A stretch of 64,000 bases of DNA from Escherichia coli (GTDB taxonomy: Bacteria; Pseudomonadota; Gammaproteobacteria; Enterobacterales; Enterobacteriaceae). Below are positions 3,001 to 6,000 of the stretch, in pieces; the first letter of the stretch is position 1, and each line of letters begins with the position of its first letter. The position numbers were made by a program. The stretch is taken from the NCBI RefSeq assembly GCF_041248615.1, contig NZ_CP158427.1. One strand, written 5' to 3'.

Positions 3001-6000
3001 TTACTTTGTGGCGTAGCATGCTAGATTACTGATCGTTTAAGGAATTTTGTGGCTGGCCACGCCGTAAGGTGGCAAGGAACTGGTTCTGATGTGGATTTAC
3101 AGGAGCCAGAAAAGCAAAAACCCCGATAATCTTCTTCAACTTTGGCGAGTACGAAAAGATTACCGGGGCCCACTTAAACCGTATAGCCAACAATTCAGCT
3201 ATGCGGGGAGTATAGTTATATGCCCGGAAAAGTTCAAGACTTCTTTCTGTGCTCGCTCCTTCTGCGCATTGTAAGTGCAGGATGGTGTGACTGATCTTCA
3301 CCAAACGTATTACCGCCAGGTAAAGAACCCGAATCCGGTGTTCACTCCCCGTGAAGGTGCCGGAACGCTGAAGTTCTGCGAAAAACTGATGGAAAAGGCG
3401 GTGGGCTTCACCTCCCGTTTTGATTTCGCCATTCATGTGGCGCATGCCCGTTCCCGTGGTCTGCGTCGGCGCATGCCACCGGTGCTGCGTCGACGGGCTA
3501 TTGATGCGCTGCTGCAGGGGCTGTGTTTCCACTATGACCCGCTGGCCAACCGCGTCCAGTGTTCCATCACCACACTGGCCATTGAGTGCGGACTGGCGAC
3601 AGAGTCCGGTGCAGGAAAACTCTCCATCACCCGTGCCACCCGGGCCCTGACGTTCCTGTCAGAGCTGGGACTGATTACCTACCAGACGGAATATGACCCG
3701 CTTATCGGGTGCTACATTCCGACCGACATCACGTTCACACTGGCTCTGTTTGCTGCCCTTGATGTGTCTGAGGATGCAGTGGCAGCTGCGCGCCGCAGTC
3801 GTGTTGAATGGGAAAACAAACAGCGCAAAAAGCAGGGGCTGGATACCCTGGGTATGGATGAGCTGATAGCGAAAGCCTGGCGTTTTGTGCGTGAGCGTTT
3901 CCGCAGTTACCAGACAGAGCTTAAGTCCCGTGGAATAAAACGTGCCCGTGCGCGTCGTGATGCGAACAGAGAACGTCAGGATATCGTCACCCTGGTGAAA
4001 CGGCAGCTGACGCGTGAAATCTCGGAAGGACGCTTCACTGCTAATGGTGAGGCGGTAAAACGCGAAGTGGAGCGTCGTGTGAAGGAGCGCATGATTCTGT
4101 CACGTAACCGCAATTACAGCCGGCTGGCCACAGCTTCTCCCTGAAAGTGATCTCCTCAGAATAATCCGGCCTGCGCCGGAGGCATCCGCACGCCTGAAGC
4201 CCGCCGGTGCACAAAAAAACAGCGTCGCATGCAAAAAACAATCTCATCATCCACCTTCTGGAGCATCCGATTCCCCCTGTTTTTAATACAAAATACGCCT
4301 CAGCGACGGGGAATTTTGCTTATCCACATTTAACTGCAAGGGACTTCCCCATAAGGTTACAACCGTTCATGTCATAAAGCGCCAGCCGCCAGTCTTACAG
4401 GGTGCAATGTATCTTTTAAACACCTGTTTATATCTCCTTTAAACTACTTAATTACATTCATTTAAAAAGAAAACCTATTCACTGCCTGTCCTGTGGACAG
4501 ACAGATATGCACCTCCCACCGCAAGCGGCGGGCCCCGACCGGAGTCGATTTAGTTACAACACTCAAACACAACCACCAGAAAAACCCAAGTCCAGCGCAG
4601 AACTGAAACCACAAAGCCCCTCTCCCATAACTGAAAAGCGGCCCCGCCCCGGCCCAAAGGGCCGGAACAGAGTCGCTTTTAATTATGAATGTTGTAACTA
4701 CATCATCATCGCTGTCAGTCTTCTCGCTGGAAGTTCTCAGTACACGCTCGTAAGCGGCCCTCACGGCCCGCTAACGCGGAGATACGCCCCGACTTCGGGT
4801 AAACCCTTGTCGGGACCACTCCGACCGCGCACAGAAGCTCTGTCATAGCTGAAAGCGGGTATGGTCTGGCAGGGCCGGGGATGGGTAAGGTGAAATCTAT
4901 CAATCAGTACCGGCTTACGCCGGGCTTCGGCGGTTTTACTCCGGTATCATATGCAACAACGGAGTGCCGCCTTCCATGCCGCTGACGCGGCATCTCTAAC
5001 CTTCACTCTTGACCATGTGAATGACAATCATTATTGTTTGTGTGGTAATGGGATAGAAAGTAATGGATAGAAAAAGAACAAAATTAGAGTTGTTATTTGC
5101 ATTTATAATAAATGCCACCGCAATATATATTGCATTAGCTATATATGATTGTTTTTTTAGAGGAGAGAATTTTTTATCCATGCATACATTTTACTTCTCT
5201 GCATTAATGTCTGCAATATGTTACTTTATTGATGATAATTATTATTCAATATCCGATAAGATAAAAAGGAGAGCATATGAGAACTCTGACTCTAAATGAG
5301 TCAGACCGGAGATATCCACTTTAGACTGAGATGCGTCAGAGGAACCCAGATAAATAGTGTCATCACCAGTACCGGTACCGGTACCGGTACTCACAGCCCC
5401 GCTGTATTTGCCGCCACTGAGGAATACCTTTTCTTGATTCTTTACGGTGGTACGTAAGTACTCCATTTTCGTACAGGCTCTCTTCCGCTTCCTCGTCGAT
5501 TCGCTCACTACGTTCGGTCATCGATTTGCGGCGAGCAGTGCCACCTTTCGCATATCATTGACGATCCCGATTTGAGCCAGAGAGCTGAGGTCTAATGGAG
5601 CGGAATCGTACGAGAGTGAATCAATTGTATGATATATAAATATTCTAATTGGTATAGAAAATGCTATTTAAAATATTTTTTATCTAAAAACGACATTTAA
5701 CGGACAGTTTTGTCTGGTAATCGATTTTTCCGACGTTTATTTTTTTGCTAACTGTACGTTTTCGTATGGTTAGCCCCCTGTCCCCATCTACCGAGTGGAA
5801 GTTCTGGGTACACGCTCGTAAGCGGCATATGTTGGTGACATATACGTAGTAATGACAAGGTGATAAATGGCACAGGTTAATACGCGTTTAAGAATCGACG
5901 CTGAACTGAAGGATGCTTTTATGGCCGTTGTAAAAGCATGGGCCGTAGCGGCTCTTAATTAATCCGGAAATAAGTGATCTATAAGGCACTGTTGCAAAGT

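Follow-up and report, generated by a model that had tools for sequence, protein, structure and literature searches.

The window analysed here is a 64,000-nucleotide stretch of p14408_1, a 137-kb F-type plasmid of Escherichia coli that carries resistance and the afa adhesin. Its replicon is of the IncFII type: RepA, Tap and the regulatory RepA are annotated, the order is copB-tap-repA, CopA (RF00042) is found at 3112-3202 with a score of 106 bits, and a DnaA box (TTATCCACA, at ~4321) can be read from the sequence downstream of repA. CopA is the only Rfam match in 2500-6100, with none falling within the segment considered below. The features that follow the replication genes, up to and including the first insertion sequence, are these.

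4547-4565 and 4686-4704, no strand: Ter-like inverted pair (inverted repeat I1; core GTTGTAACTA), backbone, just upstream of copy 1 of a 31-nt repeat and outside the insert
4728-4758, plus strand: copy 1 of the 31-nt direct repeat, IncFII backbone, at the start of a structure-rich conserved block downstream of the Ter pair
4759-4993, plus strand: GC-rich backbone block (60% GC), with a hairpin ATGCCGC-TGAC-GCGGCAT at its end (4976-4993)
4994-5828, no strand: inserted DNA that the reference IncFII plasmids lack, 835 bp, 38.9% GC (pairwise BLAST to pKF3-70, pTA142-3, AR_0015 and R100)
5009-5037, plus strand: promoter-like site upstream of cvi (TTGACC-17-TATTGT, consensus scan), conserved with the ColV plasmids pECOS88 and pTA142-3
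5063-5299, plus strand: cvi, by homology a colicin V (microcin V) immunity gene, 78 aa, intact, divergent allele
5277-5324, plus strand: cvaC' remnant, consisting of the first 23 nt of cvaC only (5277-5299) and then foreign DNA up to a stop (MRTLTLNESDRRYPL before the stop)
5300-5426, minus strand: 127-bp autotransporter gene fragment from mid-gene (residues 529-578 of a 1194-aa homologue), containing a hexamer run
5438-5575, no strand: ColE1-family fragment, DNA between origin and rop
5580-5785, plus strand: decayed IS101-like, Tn3-derived miniature element (TIME), 206 bp, with ~38-bp Tn3-type terminal repeats
5796-5826, plus strand: copy 2 of the direct repeat, a lone scrap of R100-type backbone just within the right end of the insert
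5829-5967, plus strand: yacA promoter and yacA remnant (BLAST to yacA of pKF3-70 and pTA142-3), where the backbone restarts
5985-6804, minus strand: IS26 (annotated transposase), with perfect 14-bp terminal inverted repeats (I4)

The left flank is ordinary replicon DNA, since 4200-4996 is found at 92-95% identity in R100, pKF3-70, pTA142-3 and AR_0015 and is conserved in an IncK plasmid as well. The assignment of the inverted pair at 4547-4704 to Ter sites is one that we assume from what is known of R1/R100, and its core GTTGTAAC is seen directly in the sequence. The block at 4759-4993 may be the repA4/leading-strand-start ('G site') region of R1/R100, with which its position downstream of oriR and the Ter pair fits. 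Single-stranded folds of the copy-1 block are more stable than those of shuffled sequences on both strands (z ~ -3); BLAST found no match between this block and phage G4, and a Smith-Waterman comparison with the G4 F-G intergenic region gave a score that 36 of 300 shuffled sequences equalled or exceeded. On the right, the yacA promoter has a ~29-bp internal deletion and is followed by a truncated antitoxin ORF of 31 aa (5867-5962) with a weak match to the RelB/DinJ N-terminus, and yacB is missing. IS26 then separates this region from an IS200C-afa cluster that lies directly next to it in another plasmid, pLWY6J-2, which is identical to the window as far as 5984; the afa cluster of p14408_1 adjoins another IS26.

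The first-pass annotation had seen in this region an insertion within the stability region of the IncFII replicon, and the alignment to reference IncFII plasmids that it proposed bears this out, since the window contains foreign DNA relative to R100 and pKF3-70. Both plasmids align with the window until ~4993-4996, and the alignment with pKF3-70 restarts at 5840. Because they keep copy 1 of the repeat and the next 235 GC-rich bases yet lack 4994-5828 and copy 2, the insert is delimited to 835 bp. The only sequence common to these true junctions is the heptamer GCGGCAT, present at 4987-4993 and again at 5822-5828, and AR_0015 retains the unbroken junction GCGGCAT-ATCCTGGTGAC. The DNA between the repeats had been called strongly AT-rich; its average (44% GC, against 51.5% for the window) agrees with the direction of that statement, but the composition is heterogeneous, with 60% GC at 4759-4993, 29% in the cvi locus, 52% in the autotransporter fragment, 50% in the ColE1-like DNA and 34.5% in the IS101-like element. 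Among the 5000 PLSDB records with the highest scores, only two cover the full span: the source plasmid p14408_1 and the independently assembled pLWY6J-2, in which the mosaic is 100% identical. The right-hand portion of the mosaic occurs in pSCZP1 and pEc673-2 as well. An assembly artefact is therefore not the explanation.

The repeat that drew attention to the segment is real and in fact one base longer than the first description of it (28/30 identity between 4729-4758 and 5797-5826), since TGGAAGTTCTCAGTACACGCTCGTAAGCGGC at 4728-4758 matches 5796-5826, whose start lies 1068 bp downstream of that of copy 1, at 29 of 31 positions (direct-repeat family D1), and only ~2e-6 pairs as good would be expected by chance per 64 kb. 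What did not survive is its reading as the bounds of foreign DNA, for 235 bp of backbone separate copy 1 from the left junction, and copy 2 is found inside the right end. The R100 and pKF3-70 versions of copy 1 are identical, and the 3' 17 nt (ACACGCTCGTAAGCGGC) are invariant in all copy-1 sequences compared, that of an IncI-gamma/K plasmid included, whereas the 5' half is variable. In copy 2 this variable half is of the R100/pKF3-70 type and not of the pLWY6J-2 type, and the copy abuts GCGGC-AT and then the yacA promoter with no gap. The exact copy-2 variant occurs in p14408_1 and pLWY6J-2 only, those of pSCZP1 and pEc673-2 having one extra SNP.

The 78-aa ORF noticed in the first pass is indeed present, at 5063-5299, but the suggestion that it might be a toxin has to be abandoned, since by homology it encodes a colicin V immunity protein. 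It shares 70 of 78 residues with the Cvi annotated on pTA142-3 (E 8e-52) and is 91% identical to that of pECOS88 (tblastn). Homologues are found in 641 PLSDB records, mostly at 89.7-91% identity, and 638 of these align over at least 80% of the length. Searches of the small ORFs with Pfam and NCBIfam gave no match, and the annotated reference Cvi is likewise unmatched; because no model in these collections recognizes Cvi, the assignment rests on pairwise identity together with RefSeq annotation. The RefSeq label of this very protein (WP_032303447.1), 'colicin transporter', is wrong. The allele is divergent, with seven to eight substitutions relative to the two annotated Cvi compared, and an identity of at least 99% is seen in only two of the 641 cvi-bearing plasmids. 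A Fur-box-like sequence (GACAATCATTATT) overlaps the promoter-like site, which is presumably regulated by Fur.

As in pECOS88 and pTA142-3, the cvaC start codon (ATG at 5277) lies within the 3' end of cvi, and the stop codon of cvi is precisely where the rearrangement has its breakpoint. Homology to 640 ColV-type cvi records covers 5000-5305, and all 640 end at 5305 or earlier. When CvaC and CvaB were searched against the whole of p14408_1 by tblastn, nothing was found at E values up to 0.01, and cva export and structural genes are also unannotated on the plasmid, which lacks cvaA, cvaB and a full cvaC and hence a complete colicin V system. On this plasmid the gene is an orphan that probably confers immunity without colicin V production and, because these genes are missing, the host would be immune to the colicin V of competitors without bearing the cost of production. 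From its own promoter-like site and full reading frame we infer that cvi is expressed and functional, and that it is likely to be the sole part of the insert that does anything. That the divergent allele is an orphan immunity gene whose specificity has changed or widened, to cover for instance a colicin V variant to which it is no longer linked, appears unlikely; selection for such a gene would account for a breakpoint right at its stop codon.

Downstream of cvi, the short GGTACC tandem run reported at about 5369-5393 is real, although Tandem Repeats Finder reads it as ACCGGT repeated 4.3 times at 5365-5390. It belongs to the autotransporter fragment, which has 79% nucleotide identity to a chromosomal autotransporter gene and 63% amino acid identity over 54 positions (E 1e-17), and encodes a (Thr-Gly)n stretch that is four residues longer than in the homologue. 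This in-frame expansion disposes of a KpnI/AgeI synthetic linker as the source of the run. A minus-strand ORF at 5242-5508, considered as a microcin with a double-glycine leader, proved to be the autotransporter fragment fused to antisense cvi. The ColE1-family fragment is 77% identical to ColE1 1308-1377, 79% to ColE1-like plasmids of 2.5-3.9 kb and 88% to large STEC plasmids.

The fourth piece was compared with the 209-bp IS101 sequence given in Table S2 of PMC13367494, to which it is identical at 151 of 215 aligned columns (70%). Its right end (GGGGACAGGGGGCTAACCATACGAAAACGTAC...) and left end (GAGAGCTGAGGTCTAATGGAGCGGAATCGTAC...) both align to the terminal repeats of IS101 and Tn3, the left tip being degenerate, and its interior is homologous to that of IS101, which carries a functional res site (PMC13367494). 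No 5-bp target-site duplication was found around 5580-5785, where the flanks read AGCCA and ATCTA; relatives in three other plasmids are flanked by the duplications ATGTT, AATTA and ATATA. Because the duplication is missing, the element is probably immobile, having been truncated or joined by later events. PLSDB holds 1567 records that match it at 70-80%, and IS101-like miniature elements in this identity range thus appear to be far commoner than one would judge from counts with a threshold of 95% identity. A cer-type XerCD site at 5584-5794 was rejected because the segment contains no match to a XerD arm with up to two mismatches (the core sought resembled GGTGCGTACAA-N8-TTATGGTAAAT), there is no homology to ColE1 cer (at 3909 of ColE1) and the DNA proved IS101-like. 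A stand-alone serine-resolvase res site was likewise discarded, as the res-like motifs are part of the IS101-type element.

Taken together, 4994-5828 is very probably not a unitary element but an 835-bp 'scrapyard' of five unrelated pieces brought together by illegitimate recombination, in which an intact orphan cvi has been preserved. The anatomy, the junctions, the absence of the insert from the reference plasmids and the orphan status of cvi on p14408_1 are direct observations; how, and in what order, the pieces were joined we infer. The insert would have been built up at a natural boundary of the plasmid, with the conserved part of the IncFII replicon on one side (repA, oriR, the Ter pair and the structured block up to the hairpin at 4976-4993) and, on the other, the variable accessory DNA, which normally opens with the yacAB toxin-antitoxin genes. 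The first piece comes from the left extremity of a colicin V operon and comprises the promoter, the complete cvi and the initial 23 nt of cvaC. It is followed by an internal autotransporter gene fragment, a ColE1-family fragment, the decayed IS101-like miniature element of the Tn3 family and, as the fifth, a 31-nt scrap of R100-type backbone joined to the yacA promoter via the pentamer GCGGC. The stretches 5427-5437 and 5786-5795 belong to none of these pieces.

A rival reading of the locus is a discrete cassette of ~1.07 kb that was transposed or recombined site-specifically and whose ends, the 31-nt repeats, would be either att-like or the product of a long target duplication. Something of the kind was raised in the first pass as a site-specific recombination product, and it could draw on a repeat that is well beyond chance, on foreign DNA between the copies that is missing from R100 and pKF3-70 and on a relic homologous to the res-bearing IS101 interior only 10 bp from copy 2. 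We nevertheless regard it as highly improbable. R100, pKF3-70, pTA142-3 and AR_0015 have no insert, yet all carry copy 1 and the same 235 bp and none has copy 2; because these insert-free plasmids keep that DNA, foreign sequence begins at 4994 and not at 4759. What lies between the repeats is backbone and, beyond it, five unrelated fragments, each with junctions of its own. The sole recombinase or transposase gene within or next to the segment is that of IS26, which has its own ends, and the only mobile-element relic has a degenerate left end and no 5-bp duplication. Copy 1 is moreover conserved in the IncK replicon, for reasons unrelated to the insert. Another reading is that copy 2 is a second recognition block retained by selection, recognized either by a replication protein, such as a primase or an initiator, or by a regulator of the yacA promoter. 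The invariance of the 3' 17 nt across IncFII and IncK replicons does imply that copy 1 is under constraint, and the yacA start codon follows copy 2 at a distance of 41 bp. However, copy 2 has none of the hairpins found downstream in the conserved block, has no Rfam match, precedes a truncated pseudogene and is present in only four plasmids of one lineage, in two of which (pSCZP1 and pEc673-2) an 'invariant' position is already mutated, so that a function of this sort seems most unlikely.

A more specific version of the mosaic explanation, which proposes a history rather than another function, holds that copy 2 and all DNA to its right are left over from a second IncFII backbone: two replicons would have been joined with foreign DNA between them, and later deletions would have reduced the second to its 31-mer, including one between two GCGGC pentamers that removed the equivalent of 4759-4993 to leave R-GCGGC-AT-yacA. 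The order seen, copy 2 followed by GCGGC-AT and the yacA promoter as in the backbone, is the exact product of such a deletion. The R100/pKF3-70-type 5' half of copy 2 indicates that it was copied from a real replicon, and IS101-type elements form cointegrates via replicative transposition (PMC13367494). Against this, a backbone with the GCGGC-GCGGC deletion was not found in PLSDB, where the best matches to the synthetic junction are all two-piece and span 412 bp; at least three separate events are required; and the 10 bp to the left of copy 2 (5786-5795) are unlike the backbone, matching it at 5 of 12 positions in a by-eye alignment. A cointegrate or dimer origin is thus possible but doubtful as the particular route by which the scrapyard arose.

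The significance of the locus is small beyond annotation hygiene. The lesson is that a long and highly significant direct repeat flanking foreign DNA need not flag a mobile element; the repeats mislead here because one of them belongs to the conserved backbone of the replicon and its partner is a scrap. As for biology, an afa resistance plasmid with an orphan cvi may have a competitive advantage over ColV producers in the gut.

As a whole, the locus is a case of ordinary plasmid mosaicism. With the downstream region of R1/R100/NR1 it shares CopA, the Ter pair and a collinear arrangement of copy 1 and 4759-4993 that is ~95% identical to R100, but the window has an extra, isolated 31-nt copy, and a yacA-type accessory region where R100 has CPBP-pemIK genes. 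The miniature element resembles IS101 of pSC101 in length (206 versus 209 bp), in its ~38-bp terminal inverted repeats of the Tn3 family and in its collinear interior, and differs from it in being only 70% identical, in a left terminus that reads GAGA instead of GGGG and in lacking a 5-bp duplication. The cvi-cvaC region of the ColV plasmids pECOS88 and pTA142-3 has the same promoter region, a 78-aa ORF that is 90-91% identical at the amino acid level and the same overlap of the cvaC start with the cvi end, whereas here only 23 nt of cvaC are left and p14408_1 has neither cvaA nor cvaB. The position differs too, since cvi lies here between the replicon block and yacA, but downstream of yacB in pTA142-3 and in the virulence region of the usual ColV plasmids. 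A further parallel is with orphan bacteriocin immunity genes, from which this locus may differ in that the function of cvi is putative and the specificity of its divergent allele could be different, but with which it shares the loss of toxin and export genes while the immunity gene is retained, complete and behind a promoter of its own.

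The direct repeat described in the first-pass annotation was confirmed and extends one base further than claimed: two 31-nt copies with 29/31 identity lie at 4728-4758 (copy 1) and 5796-5826 (copy 2), 1068 bp apart, where ~2e-6 such pairs would be expected by chance in 64 kb. These copies do not, however, bound the foreign DNA between them as had been proposed. R100 aligns to the window over 4200-4996 at 94.6% and has one 31-mer, identical to copy 1, while pKF3-70, also with one 31-mer, aligns over 4200-4996 and picks up again at 5840, as do pTA142-3 and AR_0015. The uninterrupted backbone junction reads ...ATGCCGCTGACGCGGCAT|ATCCTGGTGAC...yacA, and in the window it is replaced by a left junction ...GCGGCAT(4987-4993)|CTCTAACC... 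and a right junction ...CGTAAGCGGCAT(5822-5828)|ATGTTGGTGAC... Together, these alignments and junctions define an insert of 835 bp (4994-5828) with GCGGCAT as its sole flank. Copy 1 and the next 235 bp are thus backbone, present in R100 and pKF3-70, which both lack the insert, and copy 2 makes up its final ~31 nt. An insertion is therefore supported, with other boundaries than those first drawn; a site-specific recombination product is not. The window comes from the E. coli plasmid p14408_1 (NZ_LT599826.1), to which it is 100% identical over 4300-5990. The segment lies directly downstream of an IncFII-type replicon, and the features of the region are as follows.

Features of the replicon, the insert and its right flank
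up to 4144: replicon genes copB, CopA RNA, tap and repA (repA ends at 4144)
3112-3202: CopA RNA (RF00042, 106 bits)
~4321: DnaA box, read from the sequence
4547-4565 and 4686-4704: inverted pair of Ter-like sites, core GTTGTAAC (inverted repeat I1)
4994/5000-5299: colicin V operon, left end, by alignment with ColV plasmids
5300-5426, minus strand: autotransporter gene fragment, by DNA and protein similarity
5438-5575: ColE1-family fragment, similar to the ColE1 region between origin and rop
5580-5785: IS101-like, Tn3-derived miniature element, by similarity to IS101
5796-5826: copy 2, preceded by 10 unassigned bases and followed by AT and the yacA promoter
5985-6804: IS26, by terminal repeats and annotation

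The backbone block that begins with copy 1, putatively the repA4/leading-strand-start ('G site') region of the R1/NR1 literature, is also kept, 31-mer included, 3' of the replication gene in an IncI-gamma/K plasmid (L007). Comparison of the copy-1 sequences showed that the 31-mer is invariant in its 3' 17 nt and variable in its 5' 14 nt. As single-stranded DNA the block folds more stably than shuffled sequences (z ~ -3, both strands), and no similarity to the phage G4 origin was detectable in it. It ends in a hairpin with a perfect 7-bp stem (ATGCCGC-TGAC-GCGGCAT, 4976-4993), at whose foot the foreign DNA is exactly joined. Every plasmid compared loses its backbone homology to the window at this foot or at most ~45 bp beyond, and past it R100 has a short further stretch in common with pKF3-70.

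Base composition differs from part to part: the 'strongly AT-rich' description holds for the cvi locus (29% GC) and the IS101-like element (34.5%), but not for the 235 bp after copy 1 (60%) or the two middle pieces (~50%). The first of these, 5300-5426, has 79% DNA identity to a chromosomal gene (63% over 54 aligned amino acid positions, E 1e-17) and contains the hexamer run noted earlier (ACCGGT ×4.3, 5365-5390), which at the protein level gives STGTGTGTGDD in place of the homologue's STGAGDD, an in-frame expansion by 12 bp. The second shows 77% identity to the ColE1 interval that separates origin and rop (1308-1377), 79% to ColE1-like plasmids of 2.5-3.9 kb and 88% to large STEC plasmids. 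The ColE1 stretch between ori and rop contains primosome assembly sites, and the copy-2 scrap at 5796-5826 corresponds to the beginning of the putative leading-strand-start block of IncFII; that both scraps come from regions with single-strand priming signals may be a coincidence.

As to the origin of copy 2, its 5' half is of the R100/pKF3-70 type even in pLWY6J-2, the other plasmid with the full mosaic, where copy 1 belongs to a different type, so that copy 2 was copied from an R100-type replicon. It might be what remains of a second replicon copy, brought by a dimer or cointegrate and then reduced by deletions, since its right junction (R-GCGGC-AT-yacA) is the exact product expected from deletion between two GCGGC pentamers of the backbone copy. 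This origin is plausible but less likely than not: no backbone with such a deletion was found in PLSDB, the exact copy-2 variant occurs nowhere outside the mosaic plasmids and the left flank of copy 2 is not backbone. On its 3' side the yacA promoter has lost ~29 bp and is followed by a 31-codon yacA remnant. Copies 1 and 2 share at most 19 nt of unbroken identity and efficient RecA-dependent recombination needs more; the repeat is thus likely to be a stable scar.

Among the 5000 best-scoring PLSDB records, the whole mosaic was found only in p14408_1 and pLWY6J-2, and among complete E. coli genomes in the source alone; pSCZP1 and pEc673-2 retain only 5723-5949, with an IS element truncating the left side. 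The two mosaic plasmids are 100% identical over 4741-5984, whereas the replicon upstream differs by 3-5%, and the mismatches nearest to the identical stretch (4732, 4735, 4738 and 4740) fall inside copy 1. This pattern indicates an exchange of replicons whose crossover lay within the conserved half of the 31-mer. In pLWY6J-2 the mosaic runs straight into an adhesin cluster (IS200C-afaD-usher-chaperone), from which IS26 (5985-6804) parts the yacA remnant in p14408_1. There, the IS200C-afa cluster lies beside another IS26 ~70 kb away in the record (NZ_LT599826.1 100.7-108 kb, L018), which indicates IS26-mediated rearrangement of the region. On the far side of the IS26 at 5985-6804, a DNA cytosine methyltransferase ORF (6753-8201, minus strand) reads ~50 nt into the IS26 end before a stop, its 3' end having apparently been replaced through the insertion, and a restriction endonuclease gene lies beyond it.

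In 640 other plasmid records, the match to the colicin V piece spans exactly positions 5000-5305. A promoter-like TTGACC-17-TATTGT (5009-5037) with a Fur-box-like core is conserved with pECOS88 and pTA142-3, with which the full immunity gene cvi and the cvaC start codon (5277) also align. ColV homology ends at 5299, where the cvi stop codon is completed, and what remains of cvaC' is a stub of 15 codons. The 78-aa ORF noted earlier (5063-5299) is cvi; its product, WP_032303447.1, is named 'colicin transporter' in RefSeq, yet it shares 70/78 residues with annotated Cvi (E 8e-52) and has 91% identity to the pECOS88 Cvi, and by homology it is a predicted colicin V immunity protein, mislabelled in RefSeq. 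No Pfam or NCBIfam model detected Cvi, the annotated reference copy included. In pTA142-3, a Tn3-family terminal-repeat-like string (GGGGTCAGTTTGGAATTCGGAAAATAAACCACGTTAAGAC, ~2365-2405) occurs in the interval from yacB to the colicin V operon, suggesting that Tn3-type elements border the ColV region there too.

All components of the insert are of already known kinds. The 210-bp stretch with the IS101-like element is matched by 1567 PLSDB records at 70-80% identity, far above the counts published at >=95% identity (PMC13367494). Its relatives reside on IncF, IncI/K, IncX and small ColE1-like plasmids, with terminal inverted repeats (GGGGTCTGAAG...) and, in many, intact 5-bp target duplications (among them ATGTT, AATTA and ATATA). 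One has the same sequence as the 209-bp IS101 of Table S2 in PMC13367494, for which a functional res site and mobilization by Tn1000 have been reported (PMC13367494). The window copy is 70% identical to IS101 (151/215 columns); its left tip is degenerate (GAGA), and its flanks (AGCCA versus ATCTA) form no target duplication. Nothing in the insert behaves as a unit, and its plausible function is immunity, cvi being intact with a putative promoter. The structural gene cvaC and the exporter gene cvaB are absent from the plasmid (tblastn on the window, L017 and L018, and annotations). At least one more gene related to bacteriocins is present on the plasmid, since annotation places cmi, for colicin M immunity, just past the window's far end (L018 34799-35000). 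Selection for retained immunity would be expected to produce a breakpoint exactly where cvi ends, and cvi on p14408_1 fits the known pattern of orphan immunity genes, whose presumed expression would give protection without production.
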